The notes beneath the pieces were generated by a model that saw only the letters and a list, made by a program, of their open reading frames with translations, did not search any database and was not told the origin of the DNA. Below, in pieces: positions 2,429-13,473 of a DNA stretch of 64,000 bases. The translations under genes were made by a program, and so were the position numbers. How positions within the stretch are numbered: the first letter of the stretch is position 1; each line of letters starts with the position of its first letter. The DNA is taken from NCBI RefSeq assembly GCF_054482525.1, contig NZ_CM137006.1. The stretch is one strand, 5' to 3'.

Positions 2429-4366
2429 TCAGTAACGACGTCCCCATTCCGTGGCGCTCATCAATGTCGGTTTATCCCCCATGAAATAGCGGTAGTAAGC
2501 GTCATAAGCCAGCACGTTCTTCACATAACCGCGCGTCTCGGAAAACGGAATACTCTCGACGAATGCCACTGCGTCGATACGCCCGGCGCTATTGCCAAGC
2601 CAGGTTCGCACCCGCCCTGGTCCGGCGTTATAAGCTGCTGAGGAGAAAATACGGTTATTACCAAACTGCTGATAAACATATTGCAGGTAACTGGTGCCAA
2701 TGTTGATGTTCGTTTCCGGATCCAGCAATTGTCCTGGGCTGCTATAACCAGGAATAGAGAACATCTTCACCGTATGGGTCGCCGTGCCCGGCATAATCTG
2801 CATCAGGCCGCTGGCCCCTACCGGTGATTTCACTTTCGGATTCCAGGCGCTCTCCTGACGGGCAATCGCCATCGCATAGCTTTGCGGGATCTCCTTCCCA
2901 CTGGTGTAACGTTTGAAAAGATCGTTGTAAGCCAGCGGGAATCGCTCTTCCAGATGATCCCATAGCTTCCCGGCGATCGTTGCCTGAACGCTAAGATCCC
3001 ACCATTGGTTATTGAAAGCATACCGAGCAAGTTGAGCCTGCTCTGTTTTTGACTTGCTCTTCACCAGATTGGCCCACTCGCTACGCGCGGTATTATCGAG
3101 ATTCCAGTACATCAACTCGCGCACGCGCGCCATCTCCGGCCCCTGAGTCAGGGCGCTGTCAACATTCTGCGGCGCTTTATCAATCTTCAGCTCGTACTCT
3201 TCACCGATGCGTTGTGCAGCAACCATCGGGTAGAAACCTCGCTGTTGCATGAGTTGATGCAAAATCTCTTTTGCTTCAGCTTCACGTCCGCGTTCAAGCA
3301 GTAAATCCGCCTGCCAGTAACGCCATTCATCTTTCTCTTTCGCCTCCATCGGCAGACGCGCCAGCCAGGTATTCAGGCCGCGACGATCGCCGGTGCCAAG
3401 CGCCATTCGCACACGGCGTTCAATAAGCGAAGTAGATTGCGAACGCATAATGGCGTCATCACGCCATTTCGCCTGTTCGTCGGTGACATCGTTGCCCATC
3501 AAACGCCAGGCGATGATATCGCGCAGCTCCTGAATCTGATCTTCATTAAGCTGCTGCGCCTGGGCAAGCGACGGGATCATCAGCCGTGCATTTTCAGCAT
3601 CCTGCCGCGCCACACTGGCAAACGCCACCGCCGCCATTTGACGGGTAAAATCGGTCGCTCCGGTTGTACGCGCGAAGGTCAGTACCGTATTAGGGTTGTT
3701 CGCCAGTGAAATGATTGCCGAGGCGATAGTCTGGTAATCGGCAGGCATCTGCCCTGCCAGCACTGTTACCAGGCCAGTGTTACCCGCTTTCATCGCCAGA
3801 CGGATACGCTCTAAATACGCCAGCGGATCTTGTTTACCTGACGCACGCCAGACGCTAAATAACTTGTCACAGGCGTTAGGCTGGCTCTTGCCGGTTAGCC
3901 ACAGCTCTTTCGCCCCTTGCCAGGCTTCTTCACTCTGCCCGGTATTCCATTTCGCATAGTAGTAATTACATTGCGCTTCGGTAGTTCCGGGCTTTTCCGG
4001 GCTAAAGGCTAACAAGCCACGCCAGTCTTCACGCCGCGCCAGTTCATTGACGAAACGAGATTGGAGCGTGCGAGCGGGAGGAAGCGTGGGGTTAGCGCGA
4101 ACAAAGTTAGTGACCGTCACCGCCGGTTGATTCATCAGGTCATCGGTGATCTGACGGTATTCCAGGTAGGGATAAAGCGGATAATCCTTCAGTCCAGGCA
4201 TCATTTGTTCGACCACATCCATTTGTCGATTATCCCAGGCCTGCTTGATTTGGGCGTAGCGGCTACGCTGCTCATCCAGTGAGTCGGCTCGCGCCACGCT
4301 GCTGACCGTCAGCAGACAGACACCGGCAGCCAACAGCCGCCAGGTAACGTGTTTGGCTTTTTCCAC
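2429..4366 (-). CDS. slt: soluble lytic murein transglycosylase Slt70 (GTG start inferred; ORF extends to 4396)
   Basis: 655 aa ORF; signal peptide VTWRLLAAGVCLLTVSSVARA, C-terminal GH23 lysozyme-like domain (...ESAWNPKVKSPVGASGLMQIMPGTA...). Confidence 0.9.
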   Translation of the reverse strand: MEKAKHVTWRLLAAGVCLLTVSSVARADSLDEQRSRYAQIKQAWDNRQMDVVEQMMPGLKDYPLYPYLEYRQITDDLMNQPAVTVTNFVRANPTLPPARTLQSRFVNELARREDWRGLLAFSPEKPGTTEAQCNYYYAKWNTGQSEEAWQGAKELWLTGKSQPNACDKLFSVWRASGKQDPLAYLERIRLAMKAGNTGLVTVLAGQMPADYQTIASAIISLANNPNTVLTFARTTGATDFTRQMAAVAFASVARQDAENARLMIPSLAQAQQLNEDQIQELRDIIAWRLMGNDVTDEQAKWRDDAIMRSQSTSLIERRVRMALGTGDRRGLNTWLARLPMEAKEKDEWRYWQADLLLERGREAEAKEILHQLMQQRGFYPMVAAQRIGEEYELKIDKAPQNVDSALTQGPEMARVRELMYWNLDNTARSEWANLVKSKSKTEQAQLARYAFNNQWWDLSVQATIAGKLWDHLEERFPLAYNDLFKRYTSGKEIPQSYAMAIARQESAWNPKVKSPVGASGLMQIMPGTATHTVKMFSIPGYSSPGQLLDPETNINIGTSYLQYVYQQFGNNRIFSSAAYNAGPGRVRTWLGNSAGRIDAVAFVESIPFSETRGYVKNVLAYDAYYRYFMGDKPTLMSATEWGRRY

Positions 4367-4495
4367 AAGCGCATCCTCTAAGTGTAAATACATCAATGCA
4401 GCGTCATGCCGCGTAATAGATTTATGCTAACCAGTCATTGCCGTTTACGCCACGTTACGGACACTTTTTTACTTTTATACTCTAAATAATTCGAG

Positions 4496-4600
4496 TTGCA
4501 GGAAGGCGATAAGTGAGTGAGTCCCCAGGAGCTTACAGAAGTAAGTGACTGGGGTGAGCGAGCGTAAGCGCAGCACATGCAACTTGAAGTATGACGAGTA
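4496..4600 (+). repeat. copy A of a ~100-nt structured repeat in the ettA 5' leader (second copy at ~59184..59288)
   Basis: ttgcaggaaggcgataagtgagtgagtccccaggagcttacagaagtaagtgactggggtgagcgagcg... about 85% identical to the sequence upstream of btsT; nested hairpin CCCCAG/CTGGGG with CTTAC/GTAAG. Confidence 0.6.
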
Positions 4601-4701
4601 TACTGCGAGGGTGATCGACCGGCTGGGATTAGATAAGGAAACAGGCTACACTTCGCCTTTGAAAACTCATCATCACGATAAACATAGAGGCGAAGTCCAA
4701 C

Positions 4702-6369
4702 GTGGCTCAATTCGTTTATACCATGCATCGTGTCGGCAAAGTTGTTCCGCCGAAACGTCATATTTTGAAAAACATCTCTCTGAGTTTCTTCCCTGGGGCA
4801 AAAATTGGTGTCCTGGGTCTGAACGGCGCGGGTAAGTCCACCCTGCTGCGCATTATGGCGGGCATTGATAAAGACATCGAAGGCGAAGCGCGTCCGCAAC
4901 CGGATATCAAGATTGGTTATCTGCCGCAGGAACCGCAGCTGAACCCGGAACACACCGTGCGTGAGTCCATTGAAGAAGCGGTTTCTGAAGTGGTTAACGC
5001 CCTGAAACGCCTGGATGAAGTGTATGCACTGTACGCCGATCCGGATGCCGATTTTGACAAGCTGGCCGCTGAACAAGGCCGTCTGGAAGAGATCATTCAG
5101 GCTCACGACGGTCACAACCTGAACGTTCAGCTGGAGCGTGCGGCGGATGCGCTGCGTCTGCCGGACTGGGACGCGAAAATCGCTAACCTCTCCGGTGGTG
5201 AGCGTCGTCGCGTGGCGTTGTGCCGCCTGCTGCTGGAAAAACCAGACATGCTGCTGCTCGACGAACCGACCAACCACCTGGATGCCGAATCCGTGGCCTG
5301 GCTGGAACGCTTCCTGCACGACTTCGAAGGCACCGTTGTGGCGATTACCCACGACCGTTACTTCCTTGATAACGTTGCAGGCTGGATCCTCGAACTGGAC
5401 CGCGGTGAAGGTATTCCGTGGGAAGGCAACTACTCCTCCTGGCTGGAGCAGAAAGATCAGCGTCTGGCGCAGGAAGCTTCACAAGAAGCGGCGCGTCGTA
5501 AGTCGATCGAGAAAGAGCTGGAGTGGGTACGTCAGGGGACTAAAGGCCGTCAGTCGAAAGGTAAAGCACGTCTGGCACGCTTTGAAGAGCTGAACAGCAC
5601 CGAATATCAGAAACGTAACGAAACCAACGAACTGTTTATTCCACCAGGACCGCGTCTGGGCGATAAAGTGCTGGAAGTCAGCAATCTGCGTAAATCCTAT
5701 GGCGATCGTCTGCTGATTGACTCCCTGAGCTTCTCGATCCCGAAAGGAGCGATCGTCGGGATCATCGGTCCGAACGGTGCGGGTAAATCGACCCTGTTCC
5801 GTATGATCTCCGGTCAGGAACAGCCGGACAGCGGCACCATCACTCTGGGTGAAACGGTGAAACTGGCATCGGTTGATCAGTTCCGTGACTCAATGGATAA
5901 CAGCAAAACCGTTTGGGAAGAAGTTTCCGGCGGGCTGGATATCATGAAAATCGGCAACACCGAGATGCCAAGCCGCGCCTACGTTGGCCGCTTTAACTTT
6001 AAAGGGGTTGATCAGGGTAAACGCGTTGGTGAACTCTCCGGCGGTGAGCGCGGTCGTCTGCATCTGGCGAAGCTGCTGCAAGTTGGCGGCAACATGCTGC
6101 TGCTCGACGAACCAACCAACGACCTGGATATCGAAACCCTGCGCGCGCTGGAAAACGCCCTGCTGGAGTTCCCGGGCTGCGCGATGGTTATCTCGCACGA
6201 CCGTTGGTTCCTCGACCGTATCGCCACGCACATTCTGGATTACCAGGATGAAGGTAAAGTTGAGTTCTTCGAAGGTAACTTTACCGAGTACGAAGAGTAC
6301 AAGAAACGCACGCTGGGCGCAGACGCGCTGGAGCCGAAGCGTATCAAGTACAAGCGTATTGCGAAGTAA
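4702..6369 (+). CDS. ettA: energy-dependent translational throttle protein EttA (ABC-F ATPase)
   Basis: 555 aa ORF with two ABC ATPase domains (GLNGAGKST... LSGGERRR...; GPNGAGKST... LSGGERGR...). Confidence 0.93.
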   Translation: MAQFVYTMHRVGKVVPPKRHILKNISLSFFPGAKIGVLGLNGAGKSTLLRIMAGIDKDIEGEARPQPDIKIGYLPQEPQLNPEHTVRESIEEAVSEVVNALKRLDEVYALYADPDADFDKLAAEQGRLEEIIQAHDGHNLNVQLERAADALRLPDWDAKIANLSGGERRRVALCRLLLEKPDMLLLDEPTNHLDAESVAWLERFLHDFEGTVVAITHDRYFLDNVAGWILELDRGEGIPWEGNYSSWLEQKDQRLAQEASQEAARRKSIEKELEWVRQGTKGRQSKGKARLARFEELNSTEYQKRNETNELFIPPGPRLGDKVLEVSNLRKSYGDRLLIDSLSFSIPKGAIVGIIGPNGAGKSTLFRMISGQEQPDSGTITLGETVKLASVDQFRDSMDNSKTVWEEVSGGLDIMKIGNTEMPSRAYVGRFNFKGVDQGKRVGELSGGERGRLHLAKLLQVGGNMLLLDEPTNDLDIETLRALENALLEFPGCAMVISHDRWFLDRIATHILDYQDEGKVEFFEGNFTEYEEYKKRTLGADALEPKRIKYKRIAK

Positions 6370-6399
6370 TGCATAAAATGCCGGATGCGGCGCGCCAGC

Positions 6400-6520
6400 A
6401 TCGCATCCGGTATTAGTTAAATGATTAGTCCCCGGAAAAAGGCAGAATTTTCTTTAAGCGTATTAGCTCAGATGCGGACTGACACCTCAAATCAAGCGGG
6501 AACTCATGGTTCCCGCTTAA
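6400..6520. terminator. bidirectional terminator region between convergent ettA and LysR-family gene (REP-like GC hairpin plus second hairpin); approximate
   Basis: gccggatgcggcgcgccagcatcgcatccggt hairpin after ettA stop; aagcgggaactcatggttcccgctt hairpin after LysR gene stop. Confidence 0.5.
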
Positions 6521-6524
6521 CGTT

Positions 6525-7412
6525 TTATTCACCGCGCAAAATCTGGCGGAAATGGGAAACCAGCGGACGTTGGTTGGCTTTATGCCAGGCTGCCCATAAT
6601 TGCGTTGAATAATTCATCCACGGCAATTCACGTAATACCACCCCTTCCGGCGCATTATGACGCAGACTATGTTGAATTAAGGCCAGACCTAATCCCGCAG
6701 CGACCAGACCTAAGGCCGTGAGTGGTTCACCCGCTTCCAGGCGAATATCAGGATTAAACCCGGCGTTAACACAGGCGGCGACAAAATGATCGCGAGAATG
6801 CGCATCGTCGTTATGAATCACCGCAATCCACTGCTCATCGCCAAGTTGTGACGCGACAAGGTTTTCCTCCTGCGCCAGAGGATGATTTTGCGGTAAGGCC
6901 AACAACATTCGATCATCCAGAACCTGAATATATTCCAGATCCTGCTCGCTGTCGGTGGGCGGCGTATCGACCAGAGAAAAATCGAGACTGCGCTGGCGCA
7001 GGCCTTCAATCTGGGTCGCCGGTGGTTGGCTGTAAAGTGCGATATGCACATTCGGACGCGATACACGTAACGTACGTAGCGCCGTAGAAAGCACACCGGA
7101 ATGCATGGCGTTTTCGATATAGCCAATACACAAGCCACCATCTTCCCCCCGTCCCAGGCGTTTGCCTAACGACTCCAGGCGGTTGGCGTGTGTCAGCAAC
7201 GAACGTGTTTCGGCAAGGAATGTCTGTCCATCAGCGGTCAGGCGAATGCGCTGCTGATTACGCTCAAACAGCGTCAGCCCCAGCCGTTCTTCCAGTTGTG
7301 CAATCTGGCGGCTCAGCGGTGATTGCGAGATATGTAATCGCTCGGCTGCGCGTCCCACGTGCTCTTCTTCTGCGACCACCACGAAGTACTTCAGTTGGCG
7401 TAAATCAATCAT
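6525..7412 (-). CDS. LysR-family transcriptional regulator (LTTR), divergent from AKR-SDR-SRPBCC operon
   Basis: ORF 6525..7505; LTTR HTH start MIDLRQLKYFVVVAEEEHVGRAAERLHISQSPLSRQIAQLEERLG at codon 32; ATG with GAGG RBS. Confidence 0.8.
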   Translation of the reverse strand: MIDLRQLKYFVVVAEEEHVGRAAERLHISQSPLSRQIAQLEERLGLTLFERNQQRIRLTADGQTFLAETRSLLTHANRLESLGKRLGRGEDGGLCIGYIENAMHSGVLSTALRTLRVSRPNVHIALYSQPPATQIEGLRQRSLDFSLVDTPPTDSEQDLEYIQVLDDRMLLALPQNHPLAQEENLVASQLGDEQWIAVIHNDDAHSRDHFVAACVNAGFNPDIRLEAGEPLTALGLVAAGLGLALIQHSLRHNAPEGVVLRELPWMNYSTQLWAAWHKANQRPLVSHFRQILRGE

Positions 7413-7458
7413 GTTAGACCTCAAAGGACTTAAGTCAGACGAATTATGTCCTATCAAG

Positions 7459-7482
7459 TCACAACCTCGCAAGGTATTGTGA
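7459..7482. promoter_or_regulatory. candidate LTTR operator TCACAA-N12-TTGTGA in the LysR/AKR divergent intergenic region; approximate
   Basis: interrupted inverted repeat between the divergent start codons (7412 and 7546). Confidence 0.35.
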
Positions 7483-7545
7483 TCCACGTCACAGGGCGAT
7501 AGCAAAAAAATGCCCTAACCCAAACCGAATAATTGAGGACATCTT

Positions 7546-8556
7546 ATGAGCATCAAAAATTTACTTCCCGGCAAAATTGGCTTAGGCGGCGCACCACTCG
7601 GCAACATGTTTCGTGCCATTCCGGAAGACGAGGCCCACGCCACCGTGAGCGAAGCCTGGAACCTGGGCGTGCGTTACTTTGATACCGCGCCGCTGTACGG
7701 CTCTGGCCTTTCTGAAATCCGCATGGGCGAAGCGCTGTCTCAGTATCCACGTGATGAATACGTTCTGAGCAGCAAAGTCGGCCGCATCATGCTGGACGAA
7801 ATGGAAGATCCGGCAAAACGTGATTTCGGTGAAAAAGGTGGCCTGTTCGAACACGGCCTGAAAAACAAAATTCTGAATGACTACTCTGCTGACGCCACGC
7901 TGCGCTCAATTGAAGACAGCCTGAAACGCCTGCAAACAGATCGTCTGGATATTGTCTGGATCCACGACCCGGCGCAGGACTTCTACGGTGACAGCTGGCT
8001 GGAACAGTTCAACATAGCCCGTACCGGTGCGTTTCGTGCGCTGACACGTTTGCGTGACGAAGGTGTGATTAAAGCCTGGGGACTGGGTGTGAATCGCGTC
8101 GAACCTTGCGAACTGACGCTGGCGCTGGACGAACCGAAGCCGGATGCGTTCCTGCTGGCGGGGCGTTATTCCCTGCTGGATCACGAACGTGCGCTGCAAC
8201 GCCTGATGCCAGAAGCACTGGAACAGAACGTGGATATTGTTGTGGGCGGTCCGTACAGCTCTGGCGTACTGGCAGGCGGCGAGCACTTTGAATATCAGAA
8301 AGCTTCTGCGGCCATCCAGCAGAAAGTGGCGCAAATTAACACCATTGCCACACGTTTCAATGTGAACGTTAAAGCAGCTGCGCTGCAGTTCGCGCTGGCA
8401 AACCCGGCCGTTGCGGCGGTTATTCCTGGCTCCAGCCGTCCTGGCCGTATGGCAGAAGATCTGGCCGCACTGAATGCGCCTGTTCCGGCTGAATTCTGGG
8501 CAGAAATGCGCCGTCAAAATCTGGTTGCGGAAAACGCTCCGCTGCCGACCCGTTAA
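7546..8556 (+). CDS. aldo-keto reductase family oxidoreductase
   Basis: 336 aa ORF MSIKNLLPGKIGLGGAPLGNMF...GVRYFDTAPLYGSG...; AKR signature; RBS TGAGGA. Confidence 0.8.
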   Translation: MSIKNLLPGKIGLGGAPLGNMFRAIPEDEAHATVSEAWNLGVRYFDTAPLYGSGLSEIRMGEALSQYPRDEYVLSSKVGRIMLDEMEDPAKRDFGEKGGLFEHGLKNKILNDYSADATLRSIEDSLKRLQTDRLDIVWIHDPAQDFYGDSWLEQFNIARTGAFRALTRLRDEGVIKAWGLGVNRVEPCELTLALDEPKPDAFLLAGRYSLLDHERALQRLMPEALEQNVDIVVGGPYSSGVLAGGEHFEYQKASAAIQQKVAQINTIATRFNVNVKAAALQFALANPAVAAVIPGSSRPGRMAEDLAALNAPVPAEFWAEMRRQNLVAENAPLPTR

Positions 8557-8575
8557 TCAACCTGGTGAGAAAACG

Positions 8576-9373
8576 ATGAAACTGGATCTGACAGGTAAAG
8601 TCGCGGTGGTCAGCGGCTCAACCTCCGGCATTGGGCAGGGTATCGCCGCCGGACTGGCAAAAGCAGGCGCAACGGTGGTTGTCGTCGGCCGTAAACAGAG
8701 CGGCGTTGATGACGCCATGGCTGCGATTGCGGCACAAACCCCCACAGCGTCACTGCGCGGCGTGGTGGCGGATCTCAGCACCGAAGACGGCGTGGCTGCG
8801 CTGATCGCTGCAGTCCCAACGGCTGATGTGCTGGTCAATAATCTGGGCATTTTTAACGATAAAGATTTCTTTAGCGTTCCGGATGATGAGTGGATGCACT
8901 TCTATAACGTCAACGTCCTCTCCGGCGTTCGTCTGGCGCGTCACTATGCGCCAGGCATGACGGAACAGGGCTGGGGGCGGATTATTTTTGTCTCGTCCGA
9001 ATCCGGCGTGGCAATCCCTGGCGACATGATCAACTACGGCGTCACCAAAGCCGCGAATCTGGCGGTTTCTCATGGTCTGGCGAAACGACTGGCGGGGACC
9101 GGTGTGACCGTCAACGCCATACTGCCAGGGCCAACCTTTACCGATGGCCTGAAAGAGATGCTGGCGGATGCCGCTGCACAATCGGGACGCAGTGCGCGTG
9201 AACAGGCCGATGAGTTTGTTAAAACCTCGCGTCCGAGCTCCATCATCCAGCGTGCGGCGGATGTGGAAGAAGTAGCGAATCTGGCGGTTTATCTCGCGTC
9301 ACCGCTTTCCTCGGCAACCACAGGGGCAGCCCTGCGCGTCGATGGCGGTGTCGTCGACACCCTGACTATGTAA
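8576..9373 (+). CDS. short-chain dehydrogenase/reductase (SDR) family oxidoreductase
   Basis: ORF 8474..9373; Rossmann motif start MKLDLTGKVAVVSGSTSGIGQGIA at ATG 8576 with GGTGAG RBS; YxxxK-type catalytic region. Confidence 0.8.
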   Translation: MKLDLTGKVAVVSGSTSGIGQGIAAGLAKAGATVVVVGRKQSGVDDAMAAIAAQTPTASLRGVVADLSTEDGVAALIAAVPTADVLVNNLGIFNDKDFFSVPDDEWMHFYNVNVLSGVRLARHYAPGMTEQGWGRIIFVSSESGVAIPGDMINYGVTKAANLAVSHGLAKRLAGTGVTVNAILPGPTFTDGLKEMLADAAAQSGRSAREQADEFVKTSRPSSIIQRAADVEEVANLAVYLASPLSSATTGAALRVDGGVVDTLTM

Positions 9374-9398
9374 CCCTATAAATTAAGAGAAAATTATC

Positions 9399-9815
9399 AT
9401 GGCTAAAACAACTGTATCGATCGAAATTCCGGCTTCTACCGACGCCGTATGGCAATTGATGGGCGGCTTTGATGCGCTGCCAGACTGGCTGCCGTTCATC
9501 CCGAAAAGCGTAGTGACAGAAGGCGGTCGCGTTCGTTCGCTGACAACCTCTGACGGCGGCACTGTGGTTGAACGTCTGGAAGCGTTTGATAACCGTCAAC
9601 GCAGTTATACCTATTCCATTATTCAGGCACCGTTCCCGGTGGTGGATTACCTCTCCACCATTACCGTTCATGAAACCGCCGACAGCCAGGTTTCCCGTGT
9701 GGAATGGTTCGGTGAATTCACCCCGGTGAATGTGACGAACGAAGAGGCCGAAGCGCTGTTTACCGGCATCTATCGGGATGGTCTCAAGGCGCTGAAGGAC
9801 AACTTTGTTGCCTGA
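9399..9815 (+). CDS. SRPBCC (Bet v1-like / polyketide cyclase-dehydrase fold) family protein
   Basis: 138 aa ORF MAKTTVSIEIPASTDAVWQLMGGFDALPDWLPF...; 25 bp after SDR gene, likely same operon. Confidence 0.65.
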   Translation: MAKTTVSIEIPASTDAVWQLMGGFDALPDWLPFIPKSVVTEGGRVRSLTTSDGGTVVERLEAFDNRQRSYTYSIIQAPFPVVDYLSTITVHETADSQVSRVEWFGEFTPVNVTNEEAEALFTGIYRDGLKALKDNFVA

Positions 9816-9972
9816 TGCAATCGACAGGCGTCGGAACGTCCGGCGTCTGATTATTAACAAAATCAGAATAGTCTATTGTCATTTGTATCATTTATGTTAT
9901 CAGGCAGCAGGCGTATTCTCTCCCCATCGCGTTAATAAACGCCAAACAATTAAGACACTCTGGAATATAAAC

Positions 9973-10185
9973 ATGAAAACGATCATCGCAATTTTTACAG
10001 CTTCTCTTTTCTCTGTCGCGGCGTTTAACGCATCGGCGCAAAGCGTGACAGCAACCGGTACAACACTGGATTCCGCTGAAGCGGTTATTGCGCAGAAAGC
10101 GAAAGAGATGAACGCCTCTGAATATAAAATTACCAGCGCTCGCATGGGCAATACCGTCACCATGAGTGCCGAACTGTATAAATAA
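9973..10185 (+). CDS. small secreted DUF1471 (YdgH/BhsA/McbA-like) stress protein
   Basis: 70 aa, signal peptide MKTIIAIFTASLFSVAAFNASA then ...ASEYKITSARMGNTVTMSAELYK typical of the family. Confidence 0.6.
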   Translation: MKTIIAIFTASLFSVAAFNASAQSVTATGTTLDSAEAVIAQKAKEMNASEYKITSARMGNTVTMSAELYK

Positions 10186-10233
10186 TCGCGCGAGGGACCC
10201 ATTACGTAATTTGCTAAATATGCGCTGAATGCG

Positions 10234-10520
10234 TTGCCATTAATAAACCGTATTGTAATGCCACCGATGACGCGTTCCCGCGCGGGTGACGTTGCGACTG
10301 ACATAATGGCGGACTATTACGCGCAGCGCGCCAGTGCTGGACTTTTCATTAGCGAAGGTACGCAAATCAGCAGAAGCGCTGCGCATAATTTTCCACGGCA
10401 CGCTGATTTACTCCGGTAAAGACACCAAAGCGCGCGCCGAACAGGCGCTGGCTAACGGCTAGTCGGATCTGATTGGATTTGGTCGTCCGTATAGTGCCAA
10501 AAGCGGAAGTTGGTAGTTTC
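10234..10520 (+). pseudogene. remnant of an Old Yellow Enzyme (NemA-like NADH:flavin oxidoreductase) gene with large internal deletion and premature stops
   Basis: ORF 10234..10419 INRIVMPPMTRSRAGDV...MADYYAQRASAGLFISEGTQIS matches OYE N-terminus; downstream ...GKDTKARAEQALANG*SDLIGFGRP matches OYE C-terminal region; intervening ~280 codons missing. Confidence 0.55.
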
Positions 10521-10612
10521 AGCCTATGTTGATAAACGGGGAGCCGGTCAGCACGTAAAGAGATTTTTTTGTACTGCTATGGCCCGATCAAAAATCGATT
10601 GAGCCGAATGTG

Positions 10613-10984
10613 CTAGCTATCTCCGAAGATAATTTTTTCGAGCTCCTGCAAGTCCTGCTGTGATTGCTCGTTAAGGTTAGCCTCTAACTTGTCGTACCAT
10701 GTAAGCAGTTTCTTGCCAAGTGGTGTCAAAACCGAGCCTCCACCTTTACTGCCGCCTGTTGATGTAATTACCACCGGCTTACCTATGCCTTTATTGAGTG
10801 TATCAATCAGGAGCCACGCCCTTTTATAGGGGATTCCCAGATCTTTTGCGGCAGCTGAAAGGGAATGAAACCCATCTATAGCTCGTAAAAGATCGATTTT
10901 CCCCGGTCCCAGCGAGATATTGTCATTAATGTAGATTCGGGGTCTGACCAAAATAAAATCAAACATAAGCGTTTTTTTATTCAT
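10613..10984 (-). CDS. ModE N-terminal-domain-like winged-helix transcriptional regulator (no TOBE domains)
   Basis: ORF 10613..11002; MNKKTLMFDF...IDLLRAIDGFHSLSAAAKDLGIPYKRAWLLIDTLNKGIGKPVVITSTGGSKGGGSVLTPLGKKLL; ATG 10984 preceded by GGAG. Confidence 0.65.
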   Translation of the reverse strand: MNKKTLMFDFILVRPRIYINDNISLGPGKIDLLRAIDGFHSLSAAAKDLGIPYKRAWLLIDTLNKGIGKPVVITSTGGSKGGGSVLTPLGKKLLTWYDKLEANLNEQSQQDLQELEKIIFGDS

Positions 10985-11009
10985 TCTGAGAACTCCGTGC
11001 AAAGTATTT

Positions 11010-11816
11010 TTATCGGGTGTGTTTGAAAGTTTTGATGGCAGAAATAAGAAGGATCACACCAAGTAAAGTCATAAGGGCTTTAAGTGGGAACAAGCCGACC
11101 ATAAGTCCACCAATTGCTGCACCAATTACTGAACCAATAACCATCCATACAAACAGTGTCCTTTCTTGCTTCAGAATCAGGAAAGCATCTGCATTTATAT
11201 AACGGGAAAAGCCAACAATCATTGTTGGCAGGCTAATCATCAGTGAAAGACTTCCGGCCAGTTTAATATCTGCCCCGAAAAGGATAACGATTGTGGGGAT
11301 AAGAAGCTCTCCGCCAGCCACTCCGAGCAATGCTGCGACTATCCCGATAAAGCCCCCTGATACCACCCCCACAATAATCATGGCAAGGCCAGGTTGAAAT
11401 AACCCGCCTGAAATACTGTGCAACGGCATCCAGGCTTCAGAGAGCATGACAAAAGACAGTAAAACAAGCAGGATCAGAATGATTCTGTCCAGCCAGATTC
11501 TGGACATCTTTATGGCACGACCTGCGGCCCACCATGCTCCAATAAGACTTCCTGCCAGCAAATTTATGACAATATCAAGATGCGCCACCAACTGATCAAA
11601 AGATATAGATTTTGTTCGGAAAATTAAAGCAATAGCCACCACGGCGAGACTCATTGCTTTGTTAAAAATGACGGCTTCCAGAGAAGGGATTTTGAAACTA
11701 CCGATCAGTACGGGAAGGCGAAATTCAGCCCCTCCGAGGCCAATCAACCCACCTAAAGCCCCTATTACCGCGCCTGAGAAAAAACCTTTACCATTCCTGT
11801 TTGAAACTGACGACAT
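11010..11816 (-). CDS. TauE/SafE (DUF81) family anion (sulfite/sulfonate-type) exporter, integral membrane
   Basis: 268 aa highly hydrophobic ORF with Gly-rich TM helices (GALGGLIGLGGAEF..., GVAGGELLIPTIVILF...); GAGAGGA RBS. Confidence 0.8.
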   Translation of the reverse strand: MSSVSNRNGKGFFSGAVIGALGGLIGLGGAEFRLPVLIGSFKIPSLEAVIFNKAMSLAVVAIALIFRTKSISFDQLVAHLDIVINLLAGSLIGAWWAAGRAIKMSRIWLDRIILILLVLLSFVMLSEAWMPLHSISGGLFQPGLAMIIVGVVSGGFIGIVAALLGVAGGELLIPTIVILFGADIKLAGSLSLMISLPTMIVGFSRYINADAFLILKQERTLFVWMVIGSVIGAAIGGLMVGLFPLKALMTLLGVILLISAIKTFKHTR

Positions 11817-11833
11817 GCGTTCCTCTCTAATTC

Positions 11834-11855
11834 GTTATGTCTTTTTTGACATAAC
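11834..11855. promoter_or_regulatory. perfect inverted repeat GTTATGTC-TTTTTT-GACATAAC just upstream of the TauE RBS (candidate operator or 5'-UTR hairpin); approximate
   Basis: 8-bp perfect arms, 6-nt T spacer, ~18-39 bp upstream of TauE start. Confidence 0.5.
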
Positions 11856-12000
11856 GACAAGCATAGCATTGCAGAACAGGCGTCTGGTAGTTGCTTGTAA
11901 AGACGAGGATTGATCCAGGTTAAAATTTATTCTATTAACCTGCTCTCCGTTGTTTAACACACCACGATTTATGTGATGCTTTCATGAGAAATTAAAACAA

Positions 12001-12207
12001 CTAAGAACTTCCGCTTCTCGCTCGAAGCGGACTGTCAGATTTGATTGCATTCTGGCTACGCAACTGGTCGGTTGGAATATGAAGTTGCTCACGAATAGCC
12101 TTAGCATCCGCAATTTCGTAGCGGGTCACCCGTGCAGGTTCTTTTAAACCTTGTTTAATCTCAACAGCCTCTTCCAGAGAGGTTTTCAACTTATCAAAAA
12201 AACTCAT
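12001..12207 (-). CDS. small ORF with N-terminal similarity to HigA/MqsA-type antitoxins but lacking the HTH; possible gene remnant
   Basis: 68 aa MSFFDKLKTSLEEAVEIKQGLKEPARVTRYEIADAKAIREQLHIPTDQ...; expected HTH helix absent in all frames downstream. Confidence 0.35.
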   Translation of the reverse strand: MSFFDKLKTSLEEAVEIKQGLKEPARVTRYEIADAKAIREQLHIPTDQLRSQNAIKSDSPLRARSGSS

Positions 12208-12240
12208 TTTATACCTCGCCTTTGAGCCGTTTCGTCACGG

Positions 12241-13473
12241 TTATCTCTGCTCGCCCATCATCTCCCGCACCAGCTCCACACAGCGCAGGAAACGGCTGTC
12301 GTAATCGTCCTCTTCAACCCGCACAAATTCGATATTGTTCTCTTCCAGCATCTCCACCAGCAAGTTCTGGAACTCTTTGCGATCCACCGAACTGCCGAGG
12401 CTGCGTAAACCATCCGCCACCCACGGGGTGTTGTTCTCCAGCAGGATCACCAGATCAAAACGGTATTCATCAATCAGCGCCTGCACGAACGGATGCTCCC
12501 GCCCTTCGTACTTTTTGCAGAACGCCTGGGTAGTGACAAAATCAGTGTCGATAAACGCCACTTTATTGGCATATTTCACTGCAAAATCAATGTATTGAGC
12601 GTGTCCCAGCGCGATTTTATCGTAGTCGGAATACTGCAATGCGATCTCATCACCGCCAAGGTGTGAAAAGACATAATCGCGACCATATTCCCATGCACTG
12701 GTAGTGTTGAAGATATTAGCAAGTTTGTTTACCAGGGTTGATTTACCGCTCGACTCGCCGCCAAGGATCGCCACGGTACGCACAAAGAACGGCTTCACTT
12801 CGGTGGGAATATATTCCCAGTAGCGGAACGGGTTTTCGCGGATCTGCGCACCGCTGATACTCATAAAGGTGCGTTTCGGATCGACCAGCACCGTCTCGAT
12901 CCCCAGATGTTCCATATACTGTGGCGCATCGGCTTCTTCCGAGGTGTAGATCAGGTCCGGCTGGATCCCCTTTTCAGCCATAAACTTTTTGATGCCGTTG
13001 CTCCACACATCCCAGCCGTGCGGATACGGCTCCATGCCCTCTTCGTTGAAGGCATGAATACGGATATTTTTCTGATATTTAAAGGTTTGCAATAACCAGC
13101 GCAGACGATCCGGCACCGTGGGCTGCTGCGACATGGCGCTGTCTTCAAACAACGCACGGTCACGGGTATCGTCAAAGCCCATAATGATATGCAGCTCGTC
13201 AACCTGGCTACAGGCGCGCTGGATAAGGTAGATATGTCCGGTATGCAGCGGGTAGAACTTACCGAATACGACACCAATGGTTTTCTTCTGCCGGGGAAAC
13301 TCAAGCCCCAAAAAACGGTGCAACGCCTCCAGCTTTTGCGCGCTGGGGCTTTTAATTTTGGCATTCAGTAACTGGCTTAAATACCCTTTGGTCATACCGC
13401 TGGCATCAGCTACCTGCTGTAGCGTGCAGCCTTGTTGCTTGATGGCAGTTTTCAGGTAATCAAATGACGACAT
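12241..13473 (-). CDS. nadR: NadR: NMN adenylyltransferase / ribosylnicotinamide kinase / transcriptional repressor
   Basis: ORF 12241..13494; K-12-like start MSSFDYLKTAIKQQGCTLQQVADASGMTKGYLSQLLN at codon 8; Walker A GGESSGKST. Confidence 0.92.
   Translation of the reverse strand: MSSFDYLKTAIKQQGCTLQQVADASGMTKGYLSQLLNAKIKSPSAQKLEALHRFLGLEFPRQKKTIGVVFGKFYPLHTGHIYLIQRACSQVDELHIIMGFDDTRDRALFEDSAMSQQPTVPDRLRWLLQTFKYQKNIRIHAFNEEGMEPYPHGWDVWSNGIKKFMAEKGIQPDLIYTSEEADAPQYMEHLGIETVLVDPKRTFMSISGAQIRENPFRYWEYIPTEVKPFFVRTVAILGGESSGKSTLVNKLANIFNTTSAWEYGRDYVFSHLGGDEIALQYSDYDKIALGHAQYIDFAVKYANKVAFIDTDFVTTQAFCKKYEGREHPFVQALIDEYRFDLVILLENNTPWVADGLRSLGSSVDRKEFQNLLVEMLEENNIEFVRVEEDDYDSRFLRCVELVREMMGEQR

Follow-up and report, generated by a model that had tools for sequence, protein, structure and literature searches.

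The stretch at 10204-10500 of the window (the whole piece of DNA analysed here, 64,000 nucleotides long) is almost certainly a dead remnant of a gene for a class I Old Yellow Enzyme (OYE), which stood at the end of an island with the order LysR-AKR-SDR-SRPBCC-DUF1471-OYE that in this strain lies between ettA and nadR. The two parts of this stretch, 10204-10371 and 10372-10500, were confirmed to be the N- and C-terminal pieces of one OYE gene. The N-terminal remnant (10204..10371, + strand, frame 1) covers codons 1-58 of the orthologous gene, which when intact has 365 codons, with 2 codons missing, and the C-terminal remnant (10372..10500, + strand, frame 2) begins with the third base of codon 287 and ends with codon 330.

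Two abutting pieces of one Old Yellow Enzyme gene

An earlier note on this DNA had read the open reading frame (ORF) at 10234..10419 as the N-terminus of an OYE. This ORF exists, encoding 61 aa from a TTG start, and its first 46 codons match the Pfam family Oxidored_FMN (PF00724), but its last 15 codons are the C-terminal piece read in the wrong frame. The homology begins at 10204, upstream of the 61-aa ORF, and runs across an in-frame TAA, so that the frame 1 translation reads ...T*FAKYALNALPLINRIVMPPMTRSRAGDVATDIMADYYAQRASAGLFISEGTQIS before it turns into nonsense. The frame 2 translation reads ...AEALRIIFHGTLIYSGKDTKARAEQALANG*SDLIGFGRPY..., and it was in this +1-shifted frame that the second fragment of the earlier note, a C-terminal OYE motif broken by a stop, was recovered: the C-terminal piece carries ...ALANG*SDLIGFGRPY, with the stop being a TAG at 10460-10462.

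Compared with the PF00724 profile, the N-terminal piece aligned to positions 12-64 with 32.8 bits, above the curated gathering score of 27, which places it in the family. The C-terminal piece alone was a weak match (profile 282-325, 11.8 bits, E=0.15), and the joined pieces scored 40.4 bits. In a TBLASTN search of all 64 kb of the window with K-12 NemA, a check that the earlier note had proposed, both fragments were matched, i.e., NemA 7-66 at 10210-10380 (E=9e-12) and, collinear with this match, NemA 288-330 at 10373-10501 (E=3e-3), while all other NemA matches across the 64-kb window had E>0.4. With a closer OYE orthologue as the query, the N-terminal piece was matched at 5e-21 and the C-terminal piece at 1e-12. 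The identification of the C-terminal piece rests mainly on such close orthologues, the NemA match being modest at E=3e-3. Chance similarity was excluded by the E-values together with a DNA identity of 93-98% to the intact gene. No complete (beta/alpha)8 barrel carrying the catalytic His-x-x-His/Asn pair and a proton-donor Tyr is left in the remnant, which would make it the remains of an OYE family member and not a functional member.

A 686-bp internal deletion with a blunt junction

To place the junction, the window was aligned by blastn to the orthologous island of E69 (CP089930.1, deposited as 'E. coli strain E69'), in which the OYE gene is intact, with 365 codons, at L031 10001-11098. Positions 6494-10371 of the window align to E69 L031 6291-10174 with a DNA identity of 97.7%, and positions 10372-10500 align to E69 L031 10861-10989 at 93%, so that the junction falls exactly at 10371|10372 and the two pieces abut. 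The missing segment is E69 L031 10175-10860, 686 bp or 228 2/3 codons; because this loss starts with codon 59 and takes in the first two bases of codon 287, the reading frame changes between the pieces. The lost segment includes the catalytic His/Asn/Tyr stretch 'ELHGANGYLINQF' of the orthologue and most of the TIM barrel. Two further loci, L005 and L006, when aligned to the window by blastn, were also split at 10371|10372, which fixes the junction; as both are damaged themselves, L005 by lacking ~166 bp of the interior and L006 by a 1-nt frameshift, the exact size of the deletion was taken from E69 instead. No microhomology was found at the 10371|10372 breakpoint, and therefore slipped-strand or short-repeat recombination is not supported. 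Splitting of the gene by an insertion was excluded, since the pieces touch.

These measurements revise the geometry given in the earlier note, in which the fragments stood about 100 bp apart with some 280 codons missing between them: the pieces have no gap, only the quoted motif lying ~80-120 bp past the junction, and the internal loss amounts to the 228 2/3 codons, with a further 36 codons gone from the 3' end. The view of the locus as a pseudogene made by internal deletion holds in that there is a clean 686-bp gap relative to the intact orthologue; it falls short in that the deletion is not the sole lesion.

Further lesions and relaxed constraint

Relative to E69, the start of the gene is destroyed at 10204..10209 (+ strand), with ATG>ACG at 10204-10206 and a change of codon 2 from TTA to TAA at 10207-10209. 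At 10281..10282 (+ strand), a 6-bp deletion turns the RSRAGAGDV of intact orthologues into RSRAGDV; at this site the intact orthologues all have AGAG or AGKD. The TAG at 10460..10462 (+ strand) replaces a conserved Trp codon (TGG>TAG) and is confined to the right-flank variant to which the window belongs, the TGG being kept in a variant with a GNAT cassette (L004) and in E69. The gene is truncated at 10501..10503 (+ strand), where the last 109 bp (codons 331-365 plus the stop) are absent, and beyond 10503 the content varies among strains. In all, ~99 of the 365 codons (~27%) survive. Measured by its damage against intact full-length orthologues, the remnant is a pseudogene, with two in-frame stops in addition to the frameshifting 686-bp deletion, the start loss, the 6-bp deletion and the 3' truncation. 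All five aligned E. coli sequences (the window and four strains) have the junction and, besides it, the 6-bp deletion, the loss of the start and the stop at codon 2.

The remnants are 92.5% (N-terminal) and 93.0% (C-terminal) identical to E69, as against 97.2-98.6% for five intact genes of the island. Nonsynonymous and synonymous differences from E69 stand at 5:2 in the N-terminal piece and 6:2 in the C-terminal piece, or 11:4 overall, all of them small counts. This pattern fits a relaxed constraint on the remnant relative to the neighbouring genes.

Distribution in E. coli and alternative readings

The remnant region is matched in 482 of 5426 complete E. coli genomes (~9%), and among the 60 matches listed of these 482, taken from the best to the weakest, every one is a single alignment piece across the junction. 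The central 686 bp had no close match in any of the 5426 complete genomes; as a query, it found only partial matches, with <=78% identity, to other alkene reductase genes. On their right flank the carriers fall into three variants. In variant A, the type of the window (20 genomes), the interval from 10503 to 12006 holds winged-helix and TauE genes. In variant B, a GNAT gene replaces this winged-helix/TauE cassette at the same two boundary points. Variant C, which makes up ~90% of carriers in an evenly spaced sample, has a 1.58-kb deletion that joins 10441 to 12023 and so removes 10442-12022, including half of the C-terminal piece. Read together, the variants represent a stepwise erosion both of the dead gene and of the DNA around it.

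An assembly or sequencing artefact of one genome, in favour of which nothing specific was found, would be an exceedingly improbable source of the deletion, given that the same junction appears in one piece in the 60 matches listed of 482 independently assembled complete genomes and that the middle 686 bp are present in no complete E. coli genome. The number of events behind the gap has more room for argument. Several successive deletions or rearrangements, or recombination between two OYE paralogues, might have taken the place of one 686-bp event, in keeping with the several independent lesions that the locus has undergone (the 6-bp deletion, the 3' truncation and, in most strains, the further 1.58-kb deletion). 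However, a single orthologue runs collinear with the DNA on either side of the junction, nothing foreign or rearranged being inserted there, and no intermediate allele was found among the 5426 genomes; we consider such a history unlikely, and the end state is a pseudogene in either case.

It would be a different matter if the 61-aa ORF (10234-10419) and the 42-aa ORF (10334-10462) were real mini-genes retained from the two ends of the OYE gene. Both are open, and the 42-aa ORF has a RefSeq protein accession, as a 'hypothetical protein' or 'oxidoreductase', but the 61-aa ORF starts from a TTG inside the old gene, past the dead ATG, and its end is out of frame, while the 42-aa ORF differs in length and end from strain to strain (42 aa here, 66 aa in P0002) and is cut by the deletion at 10441 in ~90% of carriers. 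The substitutions are mostly nonsynonymous. Moreover, a simple scan found no promoter-like site on the + strand of 9800-10700, and the promoter and terminator counts from the simple scan around the remnant were not above those of shuffled sequence. We give retained mini-genes very little credence. A co-opted role of the remnant, as a micro-protein or as the 3' UTR of the DUF1471 gene, is conceivable but improbable.

For the preferred reading, decay of a class I OYE gene, the alignments show an internal deletion of 686 bp, blunt at its junction, that took out codons 59-287 and shifted the frame. The gene has also lost its ATG, gained the codon-2 stop, lost 6 bp and gained the TAG in the C-terminal piece, and its last 36 codons are gone where the variable right flank of the island starts. 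What is left would be without function and drifting neutrally, and the overlapping 61-aa and 42-aa ORFs are probably by-products of this process and not genes.

The ancestral enzyme was closer to SYE1 than to NemA

The intact orthologue is a class I OYE, i.e., an FMN-dependent alkene reductase. Its best match among solved structures was Shewanella oneidensis yellow enzyme 1 (SYE1; PDB 2GOU, 4AWS), with 464 bits over residues 2-364, and the two are class I alkene reductases of the OYE type; SYE1 comes from another genus and is functional, whereas the window keeps ~27% of the codons. The structure matches that followed SYE1 were All1865, glycerol trinitrate reductase, morphinone reductase, NemA (344 bits) and PETN reductase. 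K-12 NemA (N-ethylmaleimide reductase, b1650) shares PF00724 with the remnant, and both fragments of the window align to it, but its identity to the intact orthologue is only 48%. With the NCBIfam model of the NemA subfamily (NF007899), the E69 orthologue scored 396.4, just below the cut-off of 403, and K-12 nemA is situated in a nemR-nemA-gloA locus, a context unrelated to the island. The label 'NemA-like' in the earlier note is apt at the level of the family and does not extend to orthology, in view of the 48% identity, the subfamily score and the greater proximity to SYE1. The remnant is that of a paralogue of nemA, nearer to Shewanella SYE1. A decayed nemA itself was excluded, the ancestor being such a paralogue.

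Intact orthologues and the island in other lineages

A protein search with the joined fragments gave almost only short fragments and pseudogene ORFs and, by itself, no intact protein, with P0004 and P0026 as leads to contigs where a full-size OYE gene comes immediately after a YdgH/BhsA-like gene; species-representative genomes were then scanned with the reconstructed OYE, and the whole island was found elsewhere. The order LysR-AKR-SDR-SRPBCC-DUF1471-OYE is the same in E69 and in Yokenella regensburgei, and the island is present in part in Providencia alcalifaciens. The proteins of the window's island are 99% (AKR), 100% (SDR) and 99% (SRPBCC) identical to those of E69, and 94%, 92% and 85% identical, respectively, to those of Y. 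regensburgei. The two OYE protein fragments of the window are 91% and 90% identical to the E69 enzyme, and 88% and 85% identical to that of Y. regensburgei ATCC 49455 (L018); in these two islands the gene is a complete ORF of 365-366 codons, whereas here it is a remnant. Because the orthologous islands of E69 and Yokenella carry the AKR, the SDR and a full-length OYE, the island once held a third reductase, as the earlier note had proposed.

Seven orthologues from other genera were checked, and all are intact ORFs of 365-368 aa. The DUF1471-OYE pair is also present in Citrobacter amalonaticus, Kluyvera, Yokenella and E69, with the two genes adjacent in L005, L017, L018, L023, L025 and L031; elsewhere in the Enterobacterales, this OYE has the DUF1471 gene as a conserved partner. 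The OYE copy of L005 (6001-6934; GCA_027681865.1), which besides its shorter interior is frameshifted, is an independent decay of the same OYE. In a metagenomic protein of 142 aa (P0022), N- and C-terminal OYE pieces are joined as in the E. coli remnant, but in frame.

The island of E69 lies between yhiN and yhiM, and that of the window between ettA and nadR. The left flank of the E69 island, pitA-uspB-uspA-dtpB-yhiN, matches practically all E. coli genomes at an identity of only 92.4%, and the right flank reaches yhiM with ~86% identity. With core-flank identities as low as these, E69 is a divergent Escherichia lineage. The intact orthologue was thus found at the same place within the island, but at another chromosomal site and in a sister lineage. 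An intact orthologue at the same position, for which the earlier note had suggested looking in related strains, exists with regard to the island; none turned up at the same site of the chromosome in the complete E. coli genomes. Between E69 and E. coli the island has an identity of 97.7%, as against 92.4% for the left core flank of E69, and this higher identity hints at a possible horizontal transfer between Escherichia lineages. No integrase was visible in the island in the comparison of E69 with the window. One could go further and regard LysR-AKR-SDR-SRPBCC-DUF1471-OYE as a small integrase-less mobile cassette that E. coli acquired or fixed only with the OYE already dead, and at whose 3' end cassettes are swapped. 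We hold this to be improbable; if true, it would concern the island and not the remnant.

The locus, its annotation and neighbouring features

The window is E. coli chromosome, and at 9900-10700 it shows 100% identity to the strains PCN033, SCU-102, E300010 and 19KM1776. The OYE remnant sits in an accessory island that is flanked by the convergent core genes ettA and nadR, and K-12 has only ~135 bp in place of window 6395-12093. PGAP annotation of identical or near-identical strains gives a LysR regulator (6525-7412, - strand), an aldo/keto reductase (AKR; 7546-8556), an SDR (8576-9373) and an SRPBCC gene (9399-9815), and directly upstream of the remnant stands an intact gene for a DUF1471 protein of the YdgH/BhsA/McbA family (9973-10185, + strand; PGAP). 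On the other side, the gene order annotated in near-identical strains continues with a ModE-N-like winged-helix gene (10613-10984, - strand) and a TauE/SafE gene (11010-11816, - strand), followed by a truncated nadS (12001-12207, - strand; incomplete according to PGAP) and then nadR.

In strains identical to the window, PGAP records 10258-10374 as an 'alkene reductase; incomplete; partial in the middle of a contig; missing C-terminus' pseudogene, while the C-terminal piece is a separate and unlinked 42-aa 'hypothetical protein' or 'oxidoreductase', and the junction is unrecorded. The pseudogene is, in other words, partly flagged by PGAP, and what is added here is that the pieces belong to one gene, where exactly they join and which lesions the gene has suffered. 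A literature search on the island or the pseudogene found no paper. This is an ordinary pseudogene, a case of ordinary gene decay in an accessory island of the detoxification type. The reconstruction would let annotators merge two RefSeq features, the partial 'alkene reductase' and the 42-aa 'hypothetical protein', into one pseudogene, and the common junction is a clean marker of shared descent for an island found in ~9% of complete E. coli genomes.

Other features of the region were observed alongside. Alternative cassettes occupy 10503-12006, the ModE-N-like winged-helix and TauE/SafE genes in the window versus a GNAT acetyltransferase gene in strain E700025, and the cassette boundaries are flanked by the dead 3' end of the OYE gene and by the truncated nadS. 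The nadS remnant at 12001-12207 (- strand) matches positions 2-49 of the 94 positions of the NCBIfam NadS profile and is divergent after that. In E300010 (L001, NZ_CM128601.1), a 474-bp deletion (window 9118-9591) has turned the SDR and SRPBCC genes into fused pseudogenes, and an IS1A is inserted beside nadS, in the stretch that corresponds to the nadS-nadR gap; the deletion and the IS1A are more evidence of island erosion. An Rfam scan of 4000-13000 gave no match inside the OYE remnant. Between slt and ettA, the window has a 123-bp insertion (4478-4600) that K-12 and E300010 are without; its match to Rfam V_AS5 is full-length and sub-threshold (36 bits versus a gathering score of 96), and the insertion is probably an intergenic repeat of the ERIC/IRU type.
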